Assembly (NCBI GenBank): GCA_045110515.1
Contig: JBGCGD010000004.1
Span: 89,033 to 153,032, forward strand
Source: Granulosicoccus sp.
GTDB lineage: Bacteria; Pseudomonadota; Gammaproteobacteria; Granulosicoccales; Granulosicoccaceae
Reading direction: 5' to 3'
Length of the DNA: 64,000 nucleotides
The position numbers were made by a program, and so were the translations under genes. The notes beneath the pieces were generated by a model. That model was given only the letters and a program-made list of their open reading frames with translations, did no database searches and had not been told where the DNA came from. This document shows, piece after piece, positions 12,151 through 27,124 of the stretch (the stretch's first letter is position 1; each line of letters opens with the position of its first letter).

Positions 12151-12405
12151 ATGAGCACAAAGACGGCTAATATCGCAAAACTACGGTGGAGATGCCGTAG
12201 AGGTATGCGCGAGTTGGATGAAGCTATGCGTGCTTATCTGGATAACCACTATGAAGGCGCTTCAACACAAGAGCGCCTGTTGTTTGAAGAATTGCAGGAG
12301 ATGCAAGACCCGGAGCTATTCCAGCTTGTAAGTGGTAAGGCCAAGGAGGCCCGTTATCAAAACATTCTCGACAAAATGTCGCTCAGCATGGGTAGCCGCT
12401 CCTAA
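12151..12405 (+). CDS. sdhE: FAD assembly factor SdhE
   Basis: LRWRCRRGMRELD motif. Confidence 0.93.
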   Translation: MSTKTANIAKLRWRCRRGMRELDEAMRAYLDNHYEGASTQERLLFEELQEMQDPELFQLVSGKAKEARYQNILDKMSLSMGSRS

Positions 12406-12829
12406 ATTTAGCAGGCTCTACTGTACAGTTTTAGTAGTAAGTTCCGCCTGCTCACTGTGGGCAACTACCATTAGCGGTTTGCATCCAGTGCTTCATTGTT
12501 TGCTCAGCGCAAGCCTGCTGGTGTCTGTATCTTGGCAAATTATTCAAGCCAGACGCCTCACGTTAATCACACATGATGTTGACAACAACGTCTGGACAAT
12601 TACTGCTAAGGCAAATTTACCCCGTAACGGGCATTTAGTTAGATCGGGTTACCGTTGCAGCTTTCTCGTTATTTTGGTTATCCAATCTGACAACCATCAC
12701 TGCCACTACGTGCCGTTGTGGCGAGACCAAATCAGCGATTCGGAATTCAGCTACCTACACTACCAACTTCTCTATAACACGGTGAATCCCACGTCAAAAT
12801 GGACAGCCGTCTTTTCTAAACGCGCTTAG
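12332..12829 (+). CDS. YgfX/CptA-like membrane protein (start uncertain)
   Basis: Two N-terminal hydrophobic helices; C-terminal VPLWRDQISDSEFSYL resembles the YgfX (l)wpDs..e.fr.L pattern; follows sdhE as in enterobacteria. Confidence 0.6.
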   Translation: MVRPRRPVIKTFSTKCRSAWVAAPKFSRLYCTVLVVSSACSLWATTISGLHPVLHCLLSASLLVSVSWQIIQARRLTLITHDVDNNVWTITAKANLPRNGHLVRSGYRCSFLVILVIQSDNHHCHYVPLWRDQISDSEFSYLHYQLLYNTVNPTSKWTAVFSKRA

Positions 12830-13694: not shown

Positions 13695-14075
13695 ATGATT
13701 GCAGGAATTGGTGTTGACCTAGCAACTATCAGCAGAATCGAACAAGCCCATGTTCGTTTCGGTGAACGGTTTGCTAAGCGTATATTAAACCCACTTGAAT
13801 GGGACGAGTACTTAGACCATCAGTCCCCTATCCGCTTTCTGGCGAAACGTTTCGCCGTGAAAGAAGCTTCAGTTAAAGCGCTGGGAACGGGCGAACGAGC
13901 AGGTGTACTACTTAGGGACTTTTACCTTAAACACGATAGTCTTGGAAAACCGATACTTCAGGTTAGCGGTGAAGCAAAGAAGCGCTGCGAACAACAAGGC
14001 ATCAAACATTTCTGGGTGAGCATAACCGACGAAGGCGACACTGTAGCCGCCTTCGTCATCTTAGAACTGGGTTAA
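13695..14075 (+). CDS. acpS: Holo-ACP synthase
   Basis: GIGVDL, LAKRFAVKEASVKALGTG, GKP and SITDE motifs. Confidence 0.94.
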   Translation: MIAGIGVDLATISRIEQAHVRFGERFAKRILNPLEWDEYLDHQSPIRFLAKRFAVKEASVKALGTGERAGVLLRDFYLKHDSLGKPILQVSGEAKKRCEQQGIKHFWVSITDEGDTVAAFVILELG

Positions 14076-14080
14076 AAGAG

Positions 14081-15016
14081 CTACTGCGCAGCCTGATAAA
14101 CCCGAATGTAGTCAACACGTGTAGATGCCGGACTAGGCGTTGTCCCGTCAGGTGCGCCTGGCCAAATACCACCGACTGCCAAACTCATAATCAGGTACAT
14201 GTTCTGACTGCTAACGTTCTCCCCAACAACACGATACCTTGGAACATCGTTGATATAAAACAGCAGTTCCTGTGGTGCCCATGCTACACCCACTTTTTGA
14301 AAGCCTTCTGAAAAATCTGTCGATGAGATTTCCCATTGTCCAGGTGAACGCAGATTCCCATCAGCATCGGTGTAGTTATAATTGTGGAACAAACTATTGG
14401 GCTTTGCTCCATCGTATTCCATGATGAACAACTCTGGCTTCAAGTTATCAAAGTCGGTGCTGAGCATCCAAAACGCCGGCCATAACCCTCTGCCCTCTTG
14501 CAGCTCTATAGAGGCTTCTACATAACCGTAGGTAAAATCAAACTTCCCAGCAGTGGTTAACGCTCCAGACAACCAGGCTTGTTCGTTTGCCGCACTTCTG
14601 AGAGCATCTGGGGTTTCGGTCGCTGTGATCGTTAAATACTCACCATCGAGACTGAAAGGGTTATAACCAAAGTCAGCGTTATTTTGAGTGTCCACGTAGT
14701 ATTGCTGCTGGTTGTAAACCACCAGATCCGTACCCCACGTCAACGCAGTATTCCATTTTGACGCATCGAGGCTATCGCTTTGAAACTCGTCACTGAACAC
14801 CAAGTTGAAGTCAGTCAGGTCAAAAGCTGTTGACGGTCGATCAGGATCAGTGGCTGGTTCTTCATCGCCGGCGGTCGGCTGCGCCGCAGCAAAACGTGCC
14901 GCCGCTAGTTGTCGTTCGTGCTGCTCAACGAGATCGCTTTCACCACAGGCGCTTAATAATAAAGTTGTGCCAAGCAATGCGGGCAACCAAGACACGACGT
15001 GTATTGGATTGTTCAC
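14081..15016 (-). CDS. GH16-family lipoprotein with non-canonical catalytic motif ELFIME
   Basis: Lipobox LSAC; LVFSDEF, TYGYVE, WPAFWML and VDYIRVYQ; ExsH/laminarinase-like pattern. Confidence 0.85.
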   Translation of the reverse strand: MNNPIHVVSWLPALLGTTLLLSACGESDLVEQHERQLAAARFAAAQPTAGDEEPATDPDRPSTAFDLTDFNLVFSDEFQSDSLDASKWNTALTWGTDLVVYNQQQYYVDTQNNADFGYNPFSLDGEYLTITATETPDALRSAANEQAWLSGALTTAGKFDFTYGYVEASIELQEGRGLWPAFWMLSTDFDNLKPELFIMEYDGAKPNSLFHNYNYTDADGNLRSPGQWEISSTDFSEGFQKVGVAWAPQELLFYINDVPRYRVVGENVSSQNMYLIMSLAVGGIWPGAPDGTTPSPASTRVDYIRVYQAAQ

Positions 15017-15030
15017 TATGCATATCCTCC

Positions 15031-16812
15031 TTAATAGTAATAACGAATGCCTAGACCAAGCAAATCGTTATCGCCGAGTTCAAAGCGTGATACGACATCT
15101 AAGTGCGGTGTCAGGTGCCAGTACGCACCACCAAAGGCTTTCAAATCTCCCTTAAAGAAGGTGCTGTAGCCTAAACCACCTCGTAGTTCCATCTGGCGAT
15201 TGATAACCATTCGTGTTGCCGCGCCAAAATACAAGCCGGAACTTCCATAGTTCACCGAAATACTGGAATCTTGATCGTCTTCGAGTTGAAACGTCCCGTG
15301 CTCGACGCCTGCCTGCAACACCATCGTAAAACGGTCTGCAACACGGGGGGTCAAGTACATGCCTCCGCCAATCATCACTTCTTGATAGGTGTTCGTGACC
15401 GCGACGCGTCCAACATAGTGGAACCGGGAGTGACTCTCCGTACTCCCTTTCACAACGACACCATTCCCGCCAACATCAAAATTGGCGGGCATTGCTTCAA
15501 CGTAGGAAAATTTATCTTCTCTGCTTCTAACACTAGCCGGAAGCTTCAGGGCGGATAATACCCCTACTTGCGACACACTGTTTTCAGTCGCTGATTTTTG
15601 CAATTCATCGTTGGCCGCAGCGACTTGCTCTAGGGTGTTTATCACAGGTAAGTCAGCCTCAGCAACAACTGCCTCTTTCTTCACCTGGGGTTTAACCACA
15701 ATAGTTTCAGAGCTTGCCGCAATTGTTGGCAACAATTCTGATTTTTTAATCGCAGACAACTCTGTAGCCGGGTTTGTTGCAGGTTCTGGCAACACAGGTT
15801 CACGGGGGATTTGATTGCGGCTATCACGAATTGGCACATTAGCCTTCGGCGATGCCGAAGCCACTGGTTCAGTGACGGTAAAACTTTTATCTTTCGGCTT
15901 TTTTAAAACGGCAACCTTTTTGGTTTTCGCAACGCCGTTAACTCCATCTACGGCTTTACTCGTTTTTTTCTTTGGATTACCAAATTGCCGTCTGTAAAGA
16001 TCTTTAGGCGGAATGCTACCATCATCGAGCAAGTAGACTTTGCCATCGAGAATAATCTTAGACCCGGGCTTACCCCCTTTAGCTGGAATATCGTCCCTGG
16101 CCTGCATGTAACGTTTACCTTCAATGGTTATCACTTTTCCCGTGAACGGTGGAAGCGTTTCCTTCTTAGCTAAATCAGGTTCGGTGGTTAAAGCCTTGCT
16201 GACAACTGAGTTTTTTTCAGGCTTCTGATCTTTCGCTGTGTCGGAGGGCTTTTGAACTGTCACCGATATGACGACAGGTTTTTCAGAGTCGCTATTATTC
16301 TTCGATTTAGCAATCTCAGCTGCGAGCTTGGCAGCACCCTGAAGCTGTGTTTTGGCAACCTGCTTGTCTTTGGTGATCGCCCCAGAATCAGAGCTTGGTT
16401 GAGCAACCTTAGGTTTTTCAGCTTTCGGATTCTTCGCAAACGCCGATTTAAGATCCCACTGAGCCCCCGAGGGGTTATCTGAAGTATTGCTTAGGGTTAT
16501 TTCACCTTTAAACGGACCGTGTCCACATTGAGGATCTTTGTAAACCGGGTAATTAAACTCACCATTTTTCTCAATTAACCCCGGCCCTGCGCCAATACGT
16601 TTACACACTTGCGCAACCGTTTGTCCACCAATAGGCGTTGGCACTATCGTGTTCATGATATCAGCGCCCAGCTCCCCCACACAGTAGCACTGGCCATCTG
16701 TCGAATAGCTACCACTCCATTGCGAAGCATGCGATGGAGACAACAAGAGATGAGCGCCGATAAACAACGCTAACGAAGATTTGACTATGTGCGGCCGCAT
16801 TTGCGATTCCAA
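15031..16812 (-). CDS. Exported protein: 4-Cys N-terminal domain, K/P-rich linker, C-terminal outer-membrane beta-barrel
   Basis: Signal peptide (…SHA|SQW); C-Y-C…C…C domain; low-complexity linker; last ~170 aa are alternating amphipathic strands ending LGLGIRYYY. Confidence 0.65.
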   Translation of the reverse strand: MESQMRPHIVKSSLALFIGAHLLLSPSHASQWSGSYSTDGQCYCVGELGADIMNTIVPTPIGGQTVAQVCKRIGAGPGLIEKNGEFNYPVYKDPQCGHGPFKGEITLSNTSDNPSGAQWDLKSAFAKNPKAEKPKVAQPSSDSGAITKDKQVAKTQLQGAAKLAAEIAKSKNNSDSEKPVVISVTVQKPSDTAKDQKPEKNSVVSKALTTEPDLAKKETLPPFTGKVITIEGKRYMQARDDIPAKGGKPGSKIILDGKVYLLDDGSIPPKDLYRRQFGNPKKKTSKAVDGVNGVAKTKKVAVLKKPKDKSFTVTEPVASASPKANVPIRDSRNQIPREPVLPEPATNPATELSAIKKSELLPTIAASSETIVVKPQVKKEAVVAEADLPVINTLEQVAAANDELQKSATENSVSQVGVLSALKLPASVRSREDKFSYVEAMPANFDVGGNGVVVKGSTESHSRFHYVGRVAVTNTYQEVMIGGGMYLTPRVADRFTMVLQAGVEHGTFQLEDDQDSSISVNYGSSGLYFGAATRMVINRQMELRGGLGYSTFFKGDLKAFGGAYWHLTPHLDVVSRFELGDNDLLGLGIRYYY

Positions 16813-16996
16813 GGGCGTAAGTTCTCGTTAAAGCGAAACAGAAAACATGCCATCACATTGCCAACGCATTAAAGCATGACCGGATTCGAATTCCGATGCT
16901 AATCCATCAAGGCTTCAACCGAGGTTCCGATAACTACCTAATAGTGGTTGAACACGAGGTTTACGACCTCGACAACACGCCGAGTAACGCACAGTT

Positions 16997-18781
16997 ATGT
17001 GCGACAACTCACACAACGGACTGCCTTCGGTATCAACAATGAATCACGCTAAATTCACAGAGAAAGGTCGGGTTACTTGCCTATGGCATGTTCCCGTATC
17101 TGTTGTTTTGCTGTCGTTTTTGAGCGCGTGCGCTGATGGCACTACCAGCGATGCAACGAGCTCGAATGCGACAGGCTCAACTGCGGTTGCAGGCCCTTCG
17201 GTGAGCGCCGCTCAGCTGTCCAACGATGCAAGTTACTCGATTGCGTTTGCGCAGGCCGTTGCTGCTGGCGATATAGAGGCCCCAGATCCGCTTCAGCCAG
17301 CTAGCGCTAACCCGAATATCGGTGCGGCCAACCCCGATACGACCGAGCCTACGGACACTCCAGACAACGCTGTCTCAGTTCCTAGTGTTGAAAATTCAGA
17401 GCAAGAAGAATCCTCTTCAGGTACCGACACGAATTCGGAAACATCACAACCGAACTCTGAGACAACCTCAAATAGTGATTCAGAATCTGACACCGACTCA
17501 ACCACTGAATCCAATCCGGATGCATTGCAATTACCAGAAGAGCCCAGCAGCACCGGTGAAGATACAGGCACTGAACCGGATGCAGGCGTCAGCGAGGAAG
17601 CACCACCCACAACCGAATTTTTCTCCGCTACAACTCCTGGTTTTAATGGTGAGATATTGGATGATTCTATTCGCGTAACCTGGCCTGTTGATCCCAATGC
17701 CCGCGGATATAACGTTTACAGACAAGCCCAGTTCGTGACCTCGGTATTTACCGAAGAATACATTGATGAGGATGTCTTCGACCGCGACTACTATTACGAG
17801 ATTCAAGCTTTCGACAATTCAGATACCCTCTACTATGTGGCAACCGGTCTTACCGTAAAAGCGCGAACCTTCGGACACATAGATCCAGAAGCACCCGTGC
17901 CGAATAACAACTTGTTAGATGACTACCAACTTGTTTTCTCTGATGAGTTTAACGGCGATTCTCTCGACACCAGTAAATGGAATACAGCGTATTTGTGGGG
18001 AACCGACCTTGTTATTAATAGCGAGGAACAATACTACGTCGATATTGCGAACGAGCCCGACTTCGGCTTCAATCCGTTCACATTCGATGGCAATAACCTC
18101 ACTATTAATTCCATTGAAACACCGCCAGAGCTTGCCAGCAAATCGTTGAATCAACCTTATTTATCCGGCGTAATTACAAGCTATGACGCTTTTAAGTTCA
18201 CTTACGGTTATGTTGAAACTCGTGCAAAAGTCACTTTCGGTAGAGGGTATTGGCCCGCGTTCTGGCTGCTTAATGCCTACTATGTAGACGATAAACCCGA
18301 GATTGATATCATGGAATTTATCGGGAACGACCAGGATGTTGTTTACCATACGTACCACTACTACGATTCGGAAGGGCAGCTACGCTCCACCGAGTCTAAA
18401 CCAACACCCGGTGTCGACTATACATCTGACTTTCATACCTACGGTGTGGAATGGAAACCGGGCACGCTAATTTTTTATATCAACAATGTAGAAGTGCATC
18501 GAGTAACGGATGCAAAGGTATCTCAACAAGAAATGTATGTCATCGCTAATACTGCCTTAGGCGGATGGTGGGCGGGATCGCCAGATGCGACTACACCTTT
18601 TCCGGGGAAGTACACACTGGACTACATTAGGGTCTATCAAAAGACAACCCCCTATGACGACGTTCTGCTTGATGATGGTTTAACTCAAGTACCTTATGCA
18701 GACGATATCATTGGAAGAGCGTCTCCAAGTCATCGCCCTTCTATCGAAGATTGGCCCGAAGGCTACCCTGACGGTCTATAA
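16997..18781 (+). CDS. GH16 glycoside hydrolase lipoprotein with acidic S/T/E linker and FN3-like domain
   Basis: LSAC lipobox (start possibly ATG 17039); VTWP…ARGYNVYR…YYYEIQAFD FN3-like segment; intact EIDIME, WPAFWLL and LDYIRVYQ. Confidence 0.88.
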   Translation: MCDNSHNGLPSVSTMNHAKFTEKGRVTCLWHVPVSVVLLSFLSACADGTTSDATSSNATGSTAVAGPSVSAAQLSNDASYSIAFAQAVAAGDIEAPDPLQPASANPNIGAANPDTTEPTDTPDNAVSVPSVENSEQEESSSGTDTNSETSQPNSETTSNSDSESDTDSTTESNPDALQLPEEPSSTGEDTGTEPDAGVSEEAPPTTEFFSATTPGFNGEILDDSIRVTWPVDPNARGYNVYRQAQFVTSVFTEEYIDEDVFDRDYYYEIQAFDNSDTLYYVATGLTVKARTFGHIDPEAPVPNNNLLDDYQLVFSDEFNGDSLDTSKWNTAYLWGTDLVINSEEQYYVDIANEPDFGFNPFTFDGNNLTINSIETPPELASKSLNQPYLSGVITSYDAFKFTYGYVETRAKVTFGRGYWPAFWLLNAYYVDDKPEIDIMEFIGNDQDVVYHTYHYYDSEGQLRSTESKPTPGVDYTSDFHTYGVEWKPGTLIFYINNVEVHRVTDAKVSQQEMYVIANTALGGWWAGSPDATTPFPGKYTLDYIRVYQKTTPYDDVLLDDGLTQVPYADDIIGRASPSHRPSIEDWPEGYPDGL

Positions 18782-18804
18782 AGAGTGAGCTCAGAGGCTG
18801 CAGT

Positions 18805-19422
18805 TTATGCAGTCTCAAACGGCTCTAAATAGAATCCAAACGTCCTCACTAAAATTTCAAACGCCGCTGACATGAGCTCTTCCCTATCCGGCTCTCCAAT
18901 GGCATAGAGTCCAACGGTGTATCCTAGACCGCTTATTTGTGCTTGATAGATCGTTAAGTCAACGTCCTGCACCCCGGTCTCAGTCGCTTTTATATCCAGC
19001 ATATCAATCCATGCGGGACGCCCATCTATCGAGACATCTATGCGGTTACTGCCATCGGTTTCAAAAGCACCTGAATCACTACCCGGTAATATCTCGATCA
19101 TGATGTAATCGGCGAAGAGGTCGGAATCACCATTCCTGGGCGCTTCAAATCCAACGGTATATCCTGGCTCAAGCACACTGAAGTCATCGGGCTGAACCGC
19201 GACTATTTTACTCCAGCCTGCAGGAATGGCGACGCTGAAACCATAGTCATCATCCTCGTAGTATTCAATATCCATGAGGAGCTCAACCGATGACTCCAAT
19301 GCAACATGGCTGCTGTCAGCATTGGCTGTTTTAGCAGGAAACGGATAGCTTGTCACCAATGCTGAAGCGCAAAAGCCCAAGATCAGTGGCACAAGGAGTA
19401 CAGGTCTCATGCTCTCAAGCAT
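18805..19422 (-). CDS. Exported hypothetical protein, PsbP/DcrB-like fold suspected
   Basis: N-terminal hydrophobic segment; YYEDDDYGFSVAIPAGW resembles the start of PsbP-like domains. Confidence 0.45.
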   Translation of the reverse strand: MLESMRPVLLVPLILGFCASALVTSYPFPAKTANADSSHVALESSVELLMDIEYYEDDDYGFSVAIPAGWSKIVAVQPDDFSVLEPGYTVGFEAPRNGDSDLFADYIMIEILPGSDSGAFETDGSNRIDVSIDGRPAWIDMLDIKATETGVQDVDLTIYQAQISGLGYTVGLYAIGEPDREELMSAAFEILVRTFGFYLEPFETA

Positions 19423-19530
19423 GCCTACTATGGGAGTTCGATTCCGAGAGCGGTGACTCAGAACGGTTATATCGCCACTAATCTGTAATACGCAAACTCA
19501 CCAATCGGGGTGAGTGAAATCTCAAAGACT

Positions 19531-21726
19531 CTAAACCTGGCAAACGTCACCAACACCGTCGTTGTCGGTATCTAACTGATCAGCATTGGCGACAGCGGGG
19601 CAATTATCGTCAGCGTCTGCGACTAAATCACCGTCACTATCAAGTAACGTGTCACACACGTCACCCGTACCGTCACCGTCTGTATCTAACTGATCGGCAT
19701 TGGCGACTGCGGGACAATTATCATCAGCGTCAGCAACCGTGTCACCGTCGCTATCTGTCAACACGTCACAGGCATCACCAATACCATCACCGTCTGTATC
19801 AGTTTGAGCGGCATTGGCATCATTTGGACAGTTGTCAACGGCATTTAGCACGCCGTCGCCATCTAGATCTAAACCATTAGTCGTGTCGCAGACGTCACCT
19901 ATTCCGTCGCCATCTGTATCTGTCTGATCCGCATTTGCATCTACGGGGCAATTGTCATCTGCGTCAGCAATTAGATCGCCGTCACTGTCAGTCAACGTGT
20001 CACAAGCATCGCCGATACCATCACCGTCAGTGTCGGTTTGCGCAGCGTTGGCATCATTTGGGCAGTTATCAGCAGCGTTGTCTATTCCATCATTGTCTAA
20101 ATCAAGACCGTTGGTTGAATCACAGACATCACCTATTCCATCGCCGTCCGCATCTGCTTGATCGGCGTTTGGAATAGCCGGACAGTTATCAGCCGGATTG
20201 TTTACAGAGTCGTTATCCGGATCCAGACCATTGGTCGGATCACAAACGTCACCGATACCGTCACCATCGACATCAGCCTGATCACTGTTTGCATCGGTAG
20301 GGCAGTTGTCCAGGGGGTCATTAACATTATCGCCATCGGGGTCCAAGCCATTAGTTAAATCACAGGCATCACCGATTCCATCCCCATCAACGTCTGCCTG
20401 ATCACTATTGGCATCGGTTGGGCAATTATCTGCAGGATCATTGACACCATCATCATCTGGGTCCAGACCGTTTATTGCATCGCATACGTCACCTATGGAA
20501 TCACCATCAACATCGTTTTGATCGGCATTAGAGATGGCCGGACAGTTATCTACGGCATCTCTGACTCCATCGCCGTCAGAATCTGTGTCGTCAGATAAAT
20601 CACACAGATCACCAAGACCATCATTGTCAATATCCGCTTGATCAGGGTTCGCGCGTGCTGGACAGTTATCTACATCGTTGTTTACACCATCACCATCCGT
20701 GTCGTCATCGTTGATGAGATCACAAGCATCGCCCGCCCCATCATTGTCGATATCAGCCTGATCCGGATTCGAATTGGTTGGACAATTATCAGTCTCATCC
20801 GGGATGCCATCATTGTCTTCATCCTTAGGAGGATCCTCAGCATCCAGTGCATCAGTGCCCTGCGCAGTTTCCTGTATGTTGCTCAGTTCGTCGTCGTCAC
20901 TGTTGTAGCTATCGGTCTCATAATCGTTCTCTCCAATGACAACCGTTGTGCCACCACCCGCGTTCTGATTACGCGAAACATGTGCGATAAGCAGCGTTTG
21001 TTCCGTAGTCGAATAAAAATTAACATCGATAAGCGGATCGGAGTTTTCAGTGACTGTGACGCTACCTTGCCAGTCATTACCTTCACGCGTTAGCAAGACA
21101 GGCGTCCCGTTAACAGTAGCGGTTGCATCCACAGCCGCTTTACGTTCTTCGGTCGCATCAACCATCTCGACGGGTAATTTCAGTTGAACAACCAAATTCA
21201 CGAGTACTGGTGGTGCTATGGGCGACGTCGAGTCGTTGAACAAAAAACCTTCGCGACGTTCTTGAAGATTGGAATACCCGTCGCCGTCCGCATCCATAGA
21301 CGTATCGAATTCAGTGAACCTCAACAATACAGGGCTTGAAACAGATCCGACATTTAGCGGCTTACTTGCACGGGCCAGAGGTAGCTCCTCGCCCTCTAAA
21401 AGCTCTACCCATTCTATGGATACAACCGTTGAGGAAAGAGGCGGCAAGGTTGTTTGAAATACGTATTGGCCTTCGGCATCAGACTCGATTTCGAAAGTCT
21501 GTCCGTTGATCGTTACGCGCAGTCTAAGATTCGGTCGAATAATAGTTCGTGATTGCAGCAGTATGTCTGGTGCGGTGAATGCCATGTTGGCCATCCCATC
21601 TGCAACACCGACCGTGTTGGTATCATCCTGCTGATTGCAGCCGGAAACAAACGAAAGCACTGTTGCCAATAATACTGCACTAAACAGTCGAGACAACAGC
21701 CGTTTGAAACGTCCTTGATTCATCAT
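19531..21726 (-). CDS. Thrombospondin type-3 repeat lipoprotein
   Basis: Lipobox VSGC; two related ~120-aa N-terminal modules; 11 DxDxDG…DNCP…NxDQxDxDxDGxGDxCD units. Confidence 0.9.
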   Translation of the reverse strand: MMNQGRFKRLLSRLFSAVLLATVLSFVSGCNQQDDTNTVGVADGMANMAFTAPDILLQSRTIIRPNLRLRVTINGQTFEIESDAEGQYVFQTTLPPLSSTVVSIEWVELLEGEELPLARASKPLNVGSVSSPVLLRFTEFDTSMDADGDGYSNLQERREGFLFNDSTSPIAPPVLVNLVVQLKLPVEMVDATEERKAAVDATATVNGTPVLLTREGNDWQGSVTVTENSDPLIDVNFYSTTEQTLLIAHVSRNQNAGGGTTVVIGENDYETDSYNSDDDELSNIQETAQGTDALDAEDPPKDEDNDGIPDETDNCPTNSNPDQADIDNDGAGDACDLINDDDTDGDGVNNDVDNCPARANPDQADIDNDGLGDLCDLSDDTDSDGDGVRDAVDNCPAISNADQNDVDGDSIGDVCDAINGLDPDDDGVNDPADNCPTDANSDQADVDGDGIGDACDLTNGLDPDGDNVNDPLDNCPTDANSDQADVDGDGIGDVCDPTNGLDPDNDSVNNPADNCPAIPNADQADADGDGIGDVCDSTNGLDLDNDGIDNAADNCPNDANAAQTDTDGDGIGDACDTLTDSDGDLIADADDNCPVDANADQTDTDGDGIGDVCDTTNGLDLDGDGVLNAVDNCPNDANAAQTDTDGDGIGDACDVLTDSDGDTVADADDNCPAVANADQLDTDGDGTGDVCDTLLDSDGDLVADADDNCPAVANADQLDTDNDGVGDVCQV
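19534..20823 (-). repeat. 11 tandem coding repeats of 38-40 aa (TSP3 Ca2+-binding)
   Basis: 11 DNCP occurrences counted in the translation; degenerate at DNA level. Confidence 0.9.
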
Positions 21727-22322
21727 GGTAGTTGATCCACTACGACAGTTACGGGCACGCCAGCACTAGAGCTACCTCCTCCGCCAGCTGCAGACGCCAG
21801 CACACCAACCACTAACAGTCCTACTGCGCCATAAAGTAGTTTTCGGTTAAACGATATACCCGATGTTTCAACCGGCTCATTAGTCACTTGTGCCACAGGT
21901 GTCTTCGGTGTAACTAATTGTCGCTCTATAGGGTCAAACGCGAAACCTTGTAAGGCTCGATTACCGGCGCTATCAAAGGCTTCGATGTAATACTGGATAA
22001 ACGTTGCAGCGGGTGGTAACTCTTCGCTAGAAACGGTCGCTGTGTAAATACCACTATTACCTAGTATGTTTAGCTGGCGCTTCAGATACGGTGTTGATTC
22101 AGCAAAGCGGTAATACAAGGTAACGCTGCCAATTTCTGTGTTGTCCGCCACCGAGGCTGCAAATACCTGACTGTCTCCGGCATTGCCAGAGGAGACAGCC
22201 TCGAACTCTATAACAGGCGGTTCAATATCCGCTGACTGCGCATTAACCACACCTGGCATGGAGAACAGCTGCAGGAAGGTGATGAGCATCACCACTAAGC
22301 GTTTGCTAACGTTATCTAACAT
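21723..22322 (-). CDS. Exported Ig/FN3-like protein with C-terminal hydrophobic helix and Gly/Ser tract
   Basis: Signal peptide ending VNA|Q; DIEPPVI…VADN…VTLYYR…QYYIEAFDSAGN beta-sandwich pattern; LLYGAVGLLVVGVLASAAGGGGSSS. Stop overlaps the next ATG. Start reassigned to 22322. Confidence 0.6.
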   Translation of the reverse strand: MLDNVSKRLVVMLITFLQLFSMPGVVNAQSADIEPPVIEFEAVSSGNAGDSQVFAASVADNTEIGSVTLYYRFAESTPYLKRQLNILGNSGIYTATVSSEELPPAATFIQYYIEAFDSAGNRALQGFAFDPIERQLVTPKTPVAQVTNEPVETSGISFNRKLLYGAVGLLVVGVLASAAGGGGSSSAGVPVTVVVDQLP

Positions 22323-22357
22323 AAAATTTGAATTACCTGATGGCGAGTATTCAACGC

Positions 22358-24370
22358 TTACCAACTAATAGCTGACCAATCATTGCCGTCGCGGCTACTG
22401 ATCAAACGAATTGACTGCATATCGGAAGGCGGCACAGCGAGGCTACCGTCAGCCCTCTCAATGGATTTAATCTGCAGCGTTCCATTGATCTCACCAGTCG
22501 CATCACTCGTGGACACATTGCGGATTCGTACATCAATGCCAACGCTGTTTTCAAACACCTGCATAAATTGTTGAACACGCAGTCCCGAACGCTTCGTCAA
22601 ACTGACGACCTGTCCAATGTCTCGACTGCTGATCGCTTTCTGTAAATCTGTAAATTTTTTGTAAACCGTTTGGAGATCGTCGTCAGTGATTGCACGGGGA
22701 GCTACGTTGACCACACTTGTATTGTTTTCAAAACCTTCCGTTGATTGTGATTTAGCCACTGCAACGGCGTTGCGATTTTGGGTCCGGCTCGCAGCCTGAG
22801 CAGCTGCAGCGTTTGCTGCCTCTATCTCGCGTACGCGTGCTAGTCTTTGCTCTAAGACAGTACGTCGCTCTGCAGCCGCTCTTTCGTTGGCAATACGTCT
22901 ATCTGTTGCGATACGATCGGCTTCGGCTATTTGTCGTCTGGCCTCTTCCCTTGCAGTTTCTTCTAACGCATCCAGGCGAATTTTTTCGGCCCTCGCAGCC
23001 GTAAGTTCCGAAGCGGTTCGAGCTTGTTGTCGTTGCTGTAGTCTGGCCGCTTCTGCGCGAGCGGCTTCTGTCGTGGCGGCTTCATCAGCAGCGGCTCTAG
23101 CTTGCTGCCTGGCTTCTTCAGCAGCGGCTTCAACACTATCGCGTGACTGCTGGCGCGCTAATGCTTGTTCTTGCGTAGCTAGCAGCCTCTGCTCTTCCAG
23201 ACGAGCCGCTTCATCGGCTGCAGCCTGCGCAGTCTGTCGCTGTACATTCAAACGTTCTTGTTCTGCAGCCAGTTGTTCAGTCCGACGCACTTCCGCCAAT
23301 CGAGCGGCCTCTATCGAAGCGACTCGGGCAGCTTCCGCTTGGCGACGATCTTCTTGCCTTGCAGCCTCAGCCACTTGCGAAGCCTGAAGCTGAACGGCAG
23401 CCTCATTTTTTAATTCTGCAATGTTGGCCTCAATGGCTTGGAATTCAGAAGCGCCGTACCCGTACAACGTTCTATCCATGGAATTCAACGCTCGCTCAGC
23501 ATCAGCATAGGCCCCGCTACTAACAAGAGCTTCCAACGCCGCTAACTGTTCGCGAAATTGCACCATGAGAGAAGACGGTTCTGCAAGGTTTCCTGCACTA
23601 TCAGGAGCCACGTCACTCAGCGCCGTGTTAGTGTCGGCAACAGCGGGCTCTACCTTTGCCTCCACTACCCCCGTATTTTCATCATTCTCAACCGTTGCGT
23701 TTAATGATGAGGGCAGTTCGCCGCGCTGAGTTTCTGACAAAAACTCATCATCGAACGCCAGTTCAGTTTGCGAATGGATGAGCTGGTCTAGTTTCCCCGA
23801 AAAATAAAGGTAACTAACTCCACCCACTATCAACAAGGCTGCAGTACCTAGGGCGAACCATCTGATCAAACTTTCTTTTGGATCTTCGTCAGGCTGATCA
23901 AAAGTGGTTGCCACCCCTTCACGCCAGTCGTTACCGAAATCCAGTTCATTACGATTGCCACGTTTAAGTGAACTGAACTCCTTCTCAAGTTCTATGTCCT
24001 CATCATTGGCAGGCGACTGCGTCGGTGGACGTACGTTGCTCTGTCGATTTCGTGCAGTCCGCTTTTTCTTGACCGGACGAAGGTCAGGAGCACTTAAAGT
24101 AGTGTCTTCGAGAAAATCTAAGTCGTCTACATTTTTAGCATGCTTAGCCGTCGTAAGCGGTGGCGGAGGTGCTACAGGATCTCCGGGTTTCGGTGGTAGA
24201 AGAGGTCCAGATTTTGAAACCGGTACGGGTGGTCTGATGGTAGGCATGGTCCTACGCATGGACTTTTTAGCTACTTTTCTGCGAGCAGTTTGCTCCTCGT
24301 CGCCTTCTGAAAGGAAGTCGAACATGGACTCGTGGTCCGGTTTGTTACGATCGAATTCTGGTTTCGACAT
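22358..24370 (-). CDS. Bitopic inner-membrane protein with TolA-like Ala/Glu/Arg coiled coil and globular C-terminal domain
   Basis: ~165-aa charged/Pro-rich N-terminus, one TM (WFALGTAALLIVGGVSYLYF), ~200-aa A/E/R/Q helix and ~110-aa C-terminal alpha+beta domain. Confidence 0.65.
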   Translation of the reverse strand: MSKPEFDRNKPDHESMFDFLSEGDEEQTARRKVAKKSMRRTMPTIRPPVPVSKSGPLLPPKPGDPVAPPPPLTTAKHAKNVDDLDFLEDTTLSAPDLRPVKKKRTARNRQSNVRPPTQSPANDEDIELEKEFSSLKRGNRNELDFGNDWREGVATTFDQPDEDPKESLIRWFALGTAALLIVGGVSYLYFSGKLDQLIHSQTELAFDDEFLSETQRGELPSSLNATVENDENTGVVEAKVEPAVADTNTALSDVAPDSAGNLAEPSSLMVQFREQLAALEALVSSGAYADAERALNSMDRTLYGYGASEFQAIEANIAELKNEAAVQLQASQVAEAARQEDRRQAEAARVASIEAARLAEVRRTEQLAAEQERLNVQRQTAQAAADEAARLEEQRLLATQEQALARQQSRDSVEAAAEEARQQARAAADEAATTEAARAEAARLQQRQQARTASELTAARAEKIRLDALEETAREEARRQIAEADRIATDRRIANERAAAERRTVLEQRLARVREIEAANAAAAQAASRTQNRNAVAVAKSQSTEGFENNTSVVNVAPRAITDDDLQTVYKKFTDLQKAISSRDIGQVVSLTKRSGLRVQQFMQVFENSVGIDVRIRNVSTSDATGEINGTLQIKSIERADGSLAVPPSDMQSIRLISSRDGNDWSAISW

Positions 24371-24539: not shown

Positions 24540-25073
24540 CTATTCGACGCTAAGCCGCAAGCTCCAGGTCTCGGCTGCTAAACCCAAAGGCTGCGATTCA
24601 GGCAGCAAAATAGTCACTGAAGCTGCCTCCGACGGCCCTGTCGCAAGCCATGCACCGGACGTTAACGCCGTTCGCGATGCCTCAATACCGTTAATGTGAG
24701 TCGGTGAATGCACCACGCGAGGGTCTGGGAGTAAGGTCTGTGCAATCTGCTGCCCGTCAGAGTTTTTCCAAACGAGCCTGACAAATGTATCGATTCCCTG
24801 GATACTTCTTCCAGAGGCCGGATACACGCTAGCACTGGCAATAGAGCGACCGCGTGCGATTGGCGCTGAACCAATAGTGGGTTGCGATATTTTGGCCGAA
24901 ATACTCGCAGAGGAACTCAGCTCAGTTGATTTAGCTAACCGCTCCTCTGGTGCTACGGGAAACAGGCGATGCAAGAAATGACCAGACTCATCAAAGCGAA
25001 TGAGCAGCCTCACATCGGCTGACGCTGTGTTTGAAATCAGCGAAATAGCTAGAAGCCAATACCACCTGTTCAT
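24540..25073 (-). CDS. Secreted hypothetical protein coupled to the M64 peptidase
   Basis: ATG at 25073 overlaps the M64 TGA (ATGA); signal peptide ending ASA|D; LVWKNSDGQQIAQTLLPDPRVVH. Confidence 0.65.
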   Translation of the reverse strand: MNRWYWLLAISLISNTASADVRLLIRFDESGHFLHRLFPVAPEERLAKSTELSSSASISAKISQPTIGSAPIARGRSIASASVYPASGRSIQGIDTFVRLVWKNSDGQQIAQTLLPDPRVVHSPTHINGIEASRTALTSGAWLATGPSEAASVTILLPESQPLGLAAETWSLRLSVE

Positions 25074-27124
25074 TCGACAACCACCTGCCATGTCCAATTG
25101 AAAATTCCCGCATGCGGTGCTGGAAGCTTGATTTTTCCACTGATATCACTGACACGCAATGCAACGGTGTGGGTACCCACAGGTGGCGAGAGCACAAGTC
25201 GATTAGGGTTATTGTCGGTAGCCGGCTGAGCGACACCGTTAAAGGTCCACTCAACCATCTGGACGTCATTACCGAATATGGGACTGACAATAAATTCCTG
25301 AGACTCTCCGGCATTAACCTGAATGATCTCGGTGTTGGGTGAAAAACCCCGAATGCCTTCTGTCAGGGAATATAAACGCAGTATCCACTGCTCGCTGTTA
25401 ACAGGGCCGAATGAGGCATCAAATGATCGCATCCGGCTGTTAAACGTCGGCCGAAAAATACCGCTTGCTCGATACAAACCACCTTCAAAGAGTCCAACGC
25501 CTGGCTCACCAAAGCTTTGTGGCAAGGGTACTGAGGGATCAATCCAGTGCGCCCAGGGCACAGCTGCGGGATCGGTCAGCGCCGTTACATTCTTATAACG
25601 CCCCTCTTGAAAAAGCTGTAGCCCAGATGTCTCTTCGATCAGGGTATCCACATACTCATCTGCAAGGTCGACAAGACTATGCCCCATCTCGTGAACAGCT
25701 ATCTCAGGAAAATAAGCGGACGTTATCGCAACACTTCCGCCACTGTTACCACTACCACCATATCGGCGATCGTTCACCAATAAGACGATTTGATCAACTG
25801 ACGGATACTCTCCCAATGCGGTTTCAAACATAGACAAGGTATTAGCGCAAATGAGCCTGAGAACGCCGCCACAGTTGTACGCGCTGTCGAAAGCTGTGTC
25901 TCTGCTATCAACGTTTTCATTGTCATCGGCCCCCGAACTCGCAGATACCGTGTTGATCATATGTATATTAAACGCACCGAGATGGCTGCCGATTCCTTCG
26001 TCTGCACGAATACTGGCAATAGCATCATCAACATGTTCACGAAACAAAGCTTGTTGATCTATCGAATAGCCATCGCCCAAGGCAACCACATGCACGCCCC
26101 TGCCTTGCTTACTCCCTAACAAGGTTCTGCCCGCACCAGATGCGGTTAGTGGGTACAACGTTATAGGCACGATTTCACGGCTGGTTGTTCCTTGTCGATC
26201 GCGTGCCGTTATAACAAGGTTGACGTTTGTGACATCGTTAACATCGGCAGCGATTAAGGTGATTGAACCCGCATTGACCTCGCTATTAATAAAATCATTG
26301 CTTTCAACGCTTATGGTGACCTGATCGCCGTCTAAATCATCAGGAAACACCTGCGCTGTTACGCGCTCTCTTGCGTTGAGTTCAACCGGCAATTGAGTGA
26401 TGTTCAGCGTTGGTGGATCGTTTACATCGATGACTTCGAAACGCACTCCGCTCACCTCGGTGAATAATCCTTCAGGATCGGTTACGCGGAAAGTGATATC
26501 GCCACTGAAACCGACATCAGTCTGGCTTGGCTGCCCCACCAACAGCCCGCTCGTCGCGTTAAGACTTAGCCAGGACGGGAGCCCATTTGCGCTATAACGC
26601 AGATCCGAGTCATCAACATCCGTCGCAATCAATTGAACTTGAAAGTCACGCCCTTGTTCGGCAACCCGCGGAATGTCAGCGGACAAGACTGGCGCATCAT
26701 TGACCGACGAAATGGTGAGTTCGACATTGACCTCCTGCCCGTCAAAACTGATGTAAGTAAACGCATCTTCACCGAAGTAGTCGTCAGCAACTGTGTACAA
26801 AAAAACCTGCCCCTGTGCTTGTAGGGTCAGCACTCCCTGCGCAGGCAAGGAGCGTATCGTTACAGGCCCCTCAGGCGGATCGTCGCCTGAATAAAATCTG
26901 CCTCGTAGCAATGTGTCCTCATTGAGAGCAAAACGCTGAACAGCCGCACCACTTTCACGAAAACTGAGTTGTGAGCTTATGATTTCCTCATTGCTACCGG
27001 CGAAATCATCGGTAGGAGGAGAAATGATACTGCTACCCGAGTCACAAGCTGTGAGCACGACACAGCACGCTGCAATGATTGCAGCCTGCGGTGATCGGGT
27101 AAATAGGTGAAGTATCCCTTTCAT
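25070..27124 (-). CDS. M64 (IgA peptidase-family) zinc metallopeptidase lipoprotein with Ig/cadherin-like repeats
   Basis: Lipobox LTAC; NDAP/NDPP cadherin-like and GLPSWL…SG He_PIG-like domains; LGDGY, YGGSG, HEMGHSLVDLADEY and GLFEGG…FRP…SRM M64 motifs. Confidence 0.87.
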   Translation of the reverse strand: MKGILHLFTRSPQAAIIAACCVVLTACDSGSSIISPPTDDFAGSNEEIISSQLSFRESGAAVQRFALNEDTLLRGRFYSGDDPPEGPVTIRSLPAQGVLTLQAQGQVFLYTVADDYFGEDAFTYISFDGQEVNVELTISSVNDAPVLSADIPRVAEQGRDFQVQLIATDVDDSDLRYSANGLPSWLSLNATSGLLVGQPSQTDVGFSGDITFRVTDPEGLFTEVSGVRFEVIDVNDPPTLNITQLPVELNARERVTAQVFPDDLDGDQVTISVESNDFINSEVNAGSITLIAADVNDVTNVNLVITARDRQGTTSREIVPITLYPLTASGAGRTLLGSKQGRGVHVVALGDGYSIDQQALFREHVDDAIASIRADEGIGSHLGAFNIHMINTVSASSGADDNENVDSRDTAFDSAYNCGGVLRLICANTLSMFETALGEYPSVDQIVLLVNDRRYGGSGNSGGSVAITSAYFPEIAVHEMGHSLVDLADEYVDTLIEETSGLQLFQEGRYKNVTALTDPAAVPWAHWIDPSVPLPQSFGEPGVGLFEGGLYRASGIFRPTFNSRMRSFDASFGPVNSEQWILRLYSLTEGIRGFSPNTEIIQVNAGESQEFIVSPIFGNDVQMVEWTFNGVAQPATDNNPNRLVLSPPVGTHTVALRVSDISGKIKLPAPHAGIFNWTWQVVVE

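Follow-up and report, generated by a model that had tools for sequence, protein, structure and literature searches.

Loss of catalytic residues has been surveyed across glycoside hydrolase family 16 (GH16): it affects 0.7% of subfamily GH16_3, 1% of other GH16 proteins and about 9% of GH16_4, where sequences that have lost one or both catalytic residues are not monophyletic (Viborg et al., 2019, PMC6827312) and to which the glycan-binding betaGRP/GNBP belong. Rv0315 of Mycobacterium tuberculosis (GH16_9) has the GH16 fold without hydrolytic activity and does not bind laminarin; it keeps the catalytic Glu and is inactive through missing substrate-binding residues (PMC4606783). In the laminarinase SCLam, the auxiliary Asp hydrogen-bonds the nucleophile for 100% of the molecular dynamics simulation time and touches the sugar in subsite -1, and subsite +1 is formed by a Thr/His pair (PMC7961093). 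Here we analyze a stretch of 64,000 nucleotides (hereafter the window; contig JBGCGD010000004.1 of assembly GCA_045110515.1, positions 89,033 to 153,032 of the forward strand) from Granulosicoccus sp., closest to Granulosicoccus sp. MAG-44 (92% identity) and belonging to the gammaproteobacterial family Granulosicoccaceae. The window carries two GH16 genes, A and B, on either side of a gene for a predicted outer-membrane beta-barrel protein (the barrel gene). In A the catalytic Asp is replaced by Phe, and an aromatic residue at this position characterizes a whole clade of orthologues, which suggests a conserved pseudo-glycosidase. Within the library that we searched, neither this locus nor a clade of bacterial GH16 pseudoenzymes is the subject of any paper, and there are no activity figures for Asp mutants of GH16 enzymes.

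Gene A (14081-15016, minus strand) encodes 311 amino acids and gene B (16997-18781, plus strand) 594, or 580 with the second start. Both match Pfam PF00722 (Glyco_hydro_16) well above its cut-off of 22 bits (A 62.7 bits, E 3.9e-17; B 94.7 bits, E 5.9e-27), which places them in the family. The GH16 domain of A, residues 67-308 (14093-14818, minus strand), was delimited by BLASTP against B and by phmmer against the laminarinases in the PDB; it aligns with that of B over 242 residues without a gap, at 50% identity (E 3e-84, BLASTP). B has the complete E-x-D-x(x)-E motif of active enzymes in the form EIDIME (18299-18316, plus strand), comprising nucleophile Glu, auxiliary Asp and acid/base Glu. 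The corresponding motif of A, aligned on the EIDIME of PDB 2vy0 and 3atg, reads E195-L-F197-I-M-E200 (14417-14434, minus strand; codons GAG TTG TTC ATC ATG GAA, with TTC for Phe) and thus fails this pattern. Translations and alignment bear out an earlier note on this DNA, which had described a paralogous GH16 pair with these two motifs. Automatic annotation nevertheless labels A-type proteins "glycoside hydrolase family 16" or "beta-glucanase".

The substitution extends far beyond the window. A homologue search with A in 5.8 billion proteins returned 621 sequences at E<=1e-10, the best 120 of which (46-92% identity) were aligned. In every one of these the Asp has given way to Phe or Tyr while the acid/base Glu200 is kept; the nucleophile Glu has become Gln in 54 (about 45%) and Thr in one. 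The conservation of Phe, put forward in the earlier note as a check, was therefore found in a broader form, with Phe or Tyr invariant and Phe by itself not fixed. When combinations are counted over the F/Y clade and its deeper representatives (in the order nucleophile, Asp site, acid/base, second residue after the acid/base), E-F-E-D occurs 42 times, Q-F-E-N, with neither the nucleophile carboxylate nor the downstream Asp, 25 times, E-Y-E-D and Q-F-E-D 17 times each, and E-Y-E-N and Q-Y-E-N nine times each; some of the rarer combinations have Arg for the acid/base Glu. A profile search against 1.84 billion representatives showed the wider relatives to be nearly all E-x-D-x-x-E (166 domains), and the F/Y group made up about 17 clusters at 50% identity.

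In a neighbor-joining tree the F/Y sequences form one clade, adjoining that of the B orthologues, which are uniformly EIDIME; the nearest relatives of A by sequence are these bacterial paralogs and not GH16_4. Glu, Gln, Thr, Arg and Met at the nucleophile position are spread over several F/Y subclades. EIDIME is unchanged in 12 syntenic B orthologues and is kept by every B orthologue examined. The Asp codon in B and all its orthologues is GAT or GAC, and the F/Y codons of A orthologues are TAT/TAC or TTT/TTC; a path from GAY (Asp) over TAY (Tyr) to TTY (Phe) would offer a natural single-step route to the two-base change. P0178, an EIDIME sequence that branches at the root of the F/Y clade, was discounted as a probable chimera of metagenome assembly. 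Its first half, which includes the lipobox and CGESDL and runs to WPAFWML, resembles A; the second half is that of a laminarinase of Bacteroidota type (GEIDIME, HGTAHW) and ends in a tail resembling those of the type IX secretion system. It distorts the base of the tree. A-type genes, taken at a threshold of at least 52% identity with one genome per GTDB species, were found only in assemblies of Granulosicoccus and other Granulosicoccaceae, and below them the next matches fall to 38% identity and are ordinary GH16 genes.

The loss of a single residue of the catalytic triad is what the early decay of a duplicate could look like, and Phe might also have been introduced by sequencing or assembly. 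We give almost no credence to either. Gene A was assembled without difference in three independent public runs (13-37x word depth), so that Phe is not a sequencing error, as the earlier note had reasoned from the two-base difference; a one-off mutation is likewise rejected, as F/Y is found throughout the clade. A has an unbroken reading frame in every orthologue, even where identity falls to about 45%. The ratio of nonsynonymous to synonymous substitution rates (dN/dS) is 0.051 for A between the window and L007 (dS 0.75) and 0.10 between L008 and L011, compared with 0.114 for B over its whole length; with a value of 0.05, A is not a decaying pseudogene, and the relaxed selection that would have spoken against the earlier note was looked for and not seen. 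The GH16 domain of A is nonetheless less conserved than that of B in 55 of 55 genome pairs (mean identity 61% versus 76%), a faster divergence that is consistent with lifted catalytic constraints or fewer constrained sites.

A site-by-site comparison shows where this divergence falls. Positions that are invariant in B and the nearest canonical relatives and relaxed in A include the N and E of N-x-E-x-Q-Y-Y, Y148, D157 and E195. A second group is fixed in A to a different residue (D197F/Y, I196L, L184M, T212N, H214N, S227Q, E259P, H261Y and D265G), and a third is common to A and B: W179 and W183 of WPAFW, S150-G151, G164-Y165-x-E167, E200, Y213, W246, W285 and D302-Y303-x-R305. The Thr/His pair of SCLam is spaced as T212 and H214 in the numbering of A. 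N101, E103, T212 and H214 show 100% conservation among B and the closest canonical relatives and are relaxed or replaced in the A clade, which therefore lacks the laminarinase substrate site as defined by N-x-E and Thr/His at +1. Judged from these alignments, the changes in A are coordinated rather than random, and the cleft appears remodelled, with the catalytic apparatus dismantled and, in the window's lineage at least, most of the sugar platform preserved.

The predicted structure of A agrees with its sequence. An AlphaFold2 (AF2) model from a 23-sequence alignment has a mean predicted local distance difference test score (pLDDT) of 80.7, rising to about 90 over residues 67-310, and folds as a beta-jelly-roll; a low-confidence helix spans residues 26-45, right behind the lipidated Cys. 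Foldseek matched the model to the GH16 laminarinases 3AZX, 4DFS, 3ATG, 2HYK and 2VY0 (E about 1e-19, template modeling score to the target 0.71-0.82), and a sequence search of the PDB with A agreed.

Both GH16 proteins carry a lipobox, read by inspection of the translations without a predictor: LLLSAC24 in A, with Cys in 23 of 23 aligned sequences, and LSAC (FLSAC45; Cys at 17129-17131) in B. Neither has Asp at +2. In A the lipobox Cys opens the motif C-G-E-S-D-L (14930-14947, minus strand), followed by the predicted helix. In the 23-sequence alignment C24 and D28 are invariant and G25 and S27 nearly so, and this N-terminal motif is the most invariant part of the A clade. Among the loci scanned (L001-L014, L087, L088 and the window), C-G-[EDK]-S-D-[LI] after a lipidated Cys occurs only in A orthologues, where a conserved helix of the form xExxERxLxxAR comes after the motif; it may act as a sorting signal or as a docking segment. 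The architecture of B is different, with a lipobox, a low-complexity linker, a beta-rich module of about 90 amino acids and the GH16 domain. The module (residues ~205-300; 17609-17896, plus strand) is conserved as FNGEILDD..RVTW..ARGYNVY...YYYEIQAFD and resembles a fibronectin-III or carbohydrate-binding module (CBM)-like domain, and residues ~205-300 gave no Pfam match even at E<=5. The C-terminal tail of B, …SPSHRPS.EDWPEGYP, is conserved as well and likewise has no family assignment.

The proposed partner of A is encoded immediately upstream. The barrel gene (15031-16800, minus strand) encodes a secreted protein of 589 amino acids, characterized here by homologue search, AF2 and Foldseek; its start is most likely ATG 16800, which gives the 589 residues of the identical database protein P0270, and not TTG 16812. 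Its 46 homologues are all of Granulosicoccus type and none is named for a known function. Inspection by eye shows an ordinary signal peptide. Four Cys in invariant alignment columns (C38, C40, C66 and C92) mark an N-terminal domain (16513-16719, minus strand), and the protein further comprises disordered linkers rich in Lys, Pro and Ala, a small beta domain and, at the C-terminus, the barrel. In the AF2 model the four-Cys domain is moderately confident and the linkers are long and disordered. The small conserved beta domain (residues 222-260, ITIEGKRY...IILDGKVYLLDDG; 16021-16137, minus strand; pLDDT 82-89) is aligned even in G. antarcticus, whose protein is without the N-terminal Cys domain. 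The barrel domain (residues 433-589; 15034-15504, minus strand) has 10 confident strands (pLDDT about 80-92) and ends in GIRYYY; Foldseek matched it with probability 1.0 to KdgM, OmpA, OmpX, Pla and TMB10, a designed 10-strand barrel, and also to NanC and Ail. Signal peptide, a C-terminal barrel ending in YYY and fold matches together identify an outer-membrane beta-barrel protein. The Pfam profile OMP_b-brl stays below threshold (E 0.0018; 18.9 versus 28.7 bits), PF13505 is on record for four of the homologues, and the N-terminal and middle domains gave no match in Pfam (E<=5) or NCBIfam, nor, with a 26-sequence profile, among the PDB sequences.

Gene A starts at GTG 15016, 14 bp past the stop codon of the barrel gene (15031-15033), as the earlier note had it, with a GGAGGA ribosome-binding site (15025-15030, minus strand) inside the spacer, 8 nt upstream of the start. 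The gap between the two genes is 14-22 bp in three loci, and in L087, a contig from a divergent high-GC relative, stop and start overlap. B diverges from the barrel gene and A, and this arrangement lies beside acpS and pdxJ in 13 of the 13 Granulosicoccaceae-type loci that extend far enough. The fixed order, found also in G. antarcticus (CP018632), runs from a gene for a 205-amino-acid protein to B, which is read in the opposite direction, then through the barrel gene and A to acpS, pdxJ and the sdh operon, which lie on the opposite strand; genes for a 670-amino-acid protein, a 213-amino-acid protein and a lipoprotein with thrombospondin type-3 (TSP3) repeats are also conserved upstream of the module. 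In G. antarcticus IMCC3135 the A orthologue is placed at about CP018632.1:2567509-2568456, as computed from L006. L087 retains the whole arrangement of B, barrel gene, A, acpS and pdxJ. In L088, another contig from the divergent high-GC relative, which is cut just upstream of A, A stands beside acpS and sdh genes only; its called start seems wrong, the lipobox lying upstream at about 351, outside the called gene.

On these grounds we propose that an ancestor of Granulosicoccaceae duplicated a gene for a B-type GH16 lipoprotein, and that in the ancestor of the clade the Asp of one copy changed to Tyr or Phe with loss of catalysis; the nucleophile would then have drifted between Glu and Gln, with further losses in one lineage. 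A would thus be an ancient, conserved pseudo-glycosidase, an outer-membrane lipoprotein that shares its GH16 ancestry with B and probably no longer carries out double-displacement hydrolysis, since a bulky aromatic residue stands in place of the Asp that positions the nucleophile and the carboxylate of the nucleophile has itself become dispensable. It would retain the aromatic platform of the cleft (W179, W183 and W285) together with Glu200, once the acid/base, and has the newly fixed polar residues Asn212 and Asn214 where the +1 subsite used to be; it may bind a beta-glucan-type glycan without cutting it, B cleaving the same glycan. Co-translated with the barrel protein encoded 14 bp upstream, A would work with it as a glycan-holding unit, the barrel serving as anchor in the outer membrane and B supplying the cutting. 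The division made in the earlier note between B, with its full motif, and A, a paralog with a disabled center that acts with the barrel gene, is supported and made considerably stronger by the clade-wide F/Y, Gln at the nucleophile position, the loss of the triad in distant orthologues and the purifying selection. Likewise, the retained tryptophans and Glu200 make the lectin role suggested there plausible and, with the new Asn residues, favor glycan binding for the A of the window. That A binds the substrate of B or a related glycan, together with the barrel protein and without cutting, is a proposal whose chances we put at about even.

Several observations weigh against this proposal. The A of the window has both E195 and E200, and a weak hydrolase activity may persist. 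The orthologues of A in L087 (4264-5802) and L088 (about 351-1813) read PMIFVGRHDG and PMVVAMRHDG, so that nucleophile, Asp and acid/base are all gone, and the cleft tryptophans have gone as well (WPAFW to LGSVLTLI, GGxW to GGVRRS), although the B of L087 still has EIDIME; as these deepest orthologues have lost the cleft tryptophans, a function common to the whole clade may not be glycan binding in the old cleft. The tree carries no support values, and no RNA run containing gene A was found. Among the ORFs between 9000 and 42000 there is no TonB-dependent transporter, SusCD pair or other glycan-utilization gene, and no TonB-dependent transporter or SusCD in the syntenic loci either. Finally, the periplasmic side is the default orientation both for outer-membrane lipoproteins of proteobacteria and for the N-terminal portions of barrels with an even number of strands. 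The module may face either the medium or the periplasm.

The divergent orthologues lend themselves to another explanation, in which A is a subunit that is neither catalyst nor lectin and its jelly-roll serves as a protein-protein scaffold, for instance by partnering or plugging the barrel protein or by acting as its periplasmic adaptor. L087 and L088 have lost the triad and the cleft tryptophans, and yet retain the lipobox, C-G-[ED]-S-D-L (as CGDSDL), the helix and, in L087, the barrel-A operon; moreover, the most invariant element of the clade is the A-specific N-terminal motif, and the tight gap or overlap between the barrel gene and A suggests a stoichiometric pair. Such a scaffold is hard to reconcile with cleft aromatics and a Glu200 that are (nearly) invariant in the lineage of the window and the best 120 homologues, and the polar, sugar-friendly Asn residues at the +1 subsite are difficult to explain without a ligand in the cleft. 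We regard it as a possible explanation, though clearly a weaker one than non-catalytic glycan binding.

The persistence of Glu200 raises the further question whether A is still an enzyme, either a weakened hydrolase or transglycosylase where both Glu are kept, or a non-canonical catalyst that relies on Glu200 only, by a substrate-assisted or lytic-transglycosylase-like mechanism with an intramolecular nucleophile. Glu200 is present in all of the best 120 homologues, the protein of the window has Glu195 in addition, and purifying selection on A is strong. Substrate-assisted glycosidases of GH18 and GH85 have Asn or Tyr helpers, which the Tyr/Phe and Gln of the A clade resemble. On the other hand, E-x-D-x(x)-E is the machinery of every GH16 hydrolase and transglycosylase (PMC6827312). 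The nucleophile carboxylate is missing from about 45% of the clade and the 25 Q-F-E-N sequences are also without the downstream Asp, some syntenic orthologues have Arg for Glu200, and the canonical N-x-E substrate motif is relaxed. A retained enzymatic role thus seems unlikely to us. The GH16-type transglycosylase considered in the earlier note is unlikely in particular, because it would need the same nucleophile that so much of the clade lacks. Less probable again, and in our view a long shot, is that the F/Y clade represents a GH16-derived catalyst that uses Glu200 and the new Tyr/Phe, Gln and Asn on a glycan other than the substrate of B; if true, such Glu200-based catalysis, substrate-assisted or lytic with an intramolecular nucleophile, would have no described counterpart in clan GH-B.

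With no transporter, SusCD pair or other glycan-utilization gene nearby, a role in nutrient capture has no contextual support, and a nutrient-uptake locus resembling a polysaccharide utilization locus (PUL) was rejected, as neither a transporter nor downstream glycosidases lie nearby. No genes for exopolysaccharide (EPS) synthesis are found near the locus.

Pairing of intact and degenerate GH16 domains is also seen elsewhere. Many relatives carry tandem GH16 domains in one protein (P0121-P0159; loci L015, 3867-5582, and L017, 6998-8689), in metagenome-assembled genomes (MAGs) of Acidimicrobiales and Erythrobacter, and in some of these the motif of one domain is degenerate (P0147 ELSIVQ, P0153 TIDIAT, P0154 DIDIAM, P0157 EIQVFG, P0159 MLSLFE/EIAVAE). 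To judge from these motifs, the pairing of an active with an inactive GH16 domain seems to have arisen more than once.

The spacer between the divergently oriented barrel-A operon and B covers 16801-16996, or 16801-17038 should the second ATG be the start of B; this codon, ATG 17039, lies the usual ~30 residues ahead of the lipobox Cys and may be the true start. A consensus scan of 13900-19600 found no sigma-70 consensus within 16801-17038, so that of the divergent promoter proposed earlier only the divergent gene orientation stands; overall site counts in this promoter and terminator scan were not above those of shuffled sequences, and the scan says nothing on promoters. The three runs that contain the full stretch (X1-X3), the sole ones to do so, are labelled 'plant metagenome', and partial matches come from algae and marine metagenomes; these habitat labels are consistent with a macrophyte- or macroalga-associated Granulosicoccus.

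Four conserved neighbor genes occupy 18805-24370 on the minus strand, described by Pfam, NCBIfam and synteny in L003, L004, L006, L008, L011, L013 and L014. The first (18805-19422) encodes the secreted 205-amino-acid protein, which has no family assignment and is syntenic with the GH16 module. The second (19531-21726) encodes a predicted lipoprotein of 731 amino acids (VSGC) with 11 TSP3 repeats; its best NCBIfam match, below the cut-off, is the cell-cohesion protein MtsC, and relatives sometimes have PKD domains instead. The third (21723-22364) encodes the 213-amino-acid protein, without family assignment and syntenic across Granulosicoccaceae, and the fourth (22358-24370) the 670-amino-acid protein, likewise syntenic and without a family, which combines a disordered N-terminus with a long coiled coil rich in Ala, Glu, Arg and Gln. 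The 670-, 213- and 205-amino-acid proteins may belong to the same envelope system as the GH16 module. Just outside the conserved cluster, 25070-27124 (minus strand) encodes a 684-amino-acid protein whose Big_9, He_PIG and cadherin-like Ig domains precede a Peptidase_M64 (IgA-peptidase-like) domain. On the other side of the module, an sdhE (Sdh5)-like ORF (12151-12405, plus strand) overlaps an ORF for a 165-amino-acid membrane protein (12332-12829, plus strand); the ORF at this position in related loci matches PF07254 (Cpta_toxin/YgfX), the usual sdhE-ygfX pair downstream of sdhCDAB.

Granulosicoccaceae, a family that has been little studied, dominate macroalgal surfaces. If A is inactive, counts of laminarin-degradation genes in kelp- and seagrass-associated Granulosicoccus are inflated by one non-enzyme per genome. 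The locus would also offer a natural case of a glycosidase turning into a pseudoenzyme, with the active sister adjoining, a visible mutational path, and orthologues graded from loss of the Asp only to full catalytic loss. As A is invariably paired with an outer-membrane barrel protein peculiar to the family, the two may belong to an envelope module that has not been described so far. G. antarcticus has been cultured, which makes the hypothesis directly testable.

Among known systems, the GH16 endo-beta-1,3(4)-glucanases or laminarinases (GH16_3; PDB 2VY0, 3ATG, 2HYK, 3AZX and 6XOF) are the nearest solved structures to A and B, with 23-30% identity and a common jelly-roll, six-residue beta-bulge motif x-x-x-I-M-E, WPAFW and GYxE. 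B has their complete EIDIME, whereas A differs by Phe for the auxiliary Asp and its clade tolerates Gln as nucleophile; the Trp that precedes the nucleophile by five residues in the laminarinases (subsite -2) is missing in both A and B when compared by eye. To the rhizobial EPS glycanases EglC, ExoK and ExsH (NF052454, NF052392) the relation is one of homology only. EglC (NF052454) is the best NCBIfam match of both proteins, with E about 1e-42 over the C-terminal GH16 domain, but the scores of 145 bits for A and 148 bits for B are far from the equivalog cut-off of 700 bits, and no EPS genes lie nearby; the label ExsH-like in the earlier note rests on this sub-threshold match.

In Bacteroidota PULs for beta-glucans, surface glycan-binding proteins (SGBPs) are glycan-binding lipoproteins found beside a GH16 lipoprotein that cuts, both at the outer membrane. 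The pairing of A and B recalls this functional logic of a binder next to a cutter. SGBPs, however, have no homology to GH16, and their genes accompany SusC/SusD; in the present locus SusCD and TonB-dependent transporters are absent, the proposed partner is a small barrel and the host a gammaproteobacterium. Rv0315 shows the opposite pattern to A, which has changed its catalytic residues and kept the aromatics of the cleft. The closest parallel in kind is betaGRP/GNBP, the non-catalytic GH16 proteins of animals and fungi (GH16_4), in which, as in A, the fold is kept and catalytic residues are lost. These proteins are eukaryotic, non-monophyletic and have usually lost the Glu residues, whereas the A clade is bacterial, monophyletic, lipid-anchored, marked by Asp to Phe/Tyr and encoded in an operon with an outer-membrane barrel. 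Non-catalytic GH16 proteins are thus already known in kind; what appears to be new, on the sequence evidence, is a bacterial Asp to Phe/Tyr lipoprotein clade with a barrel partner.

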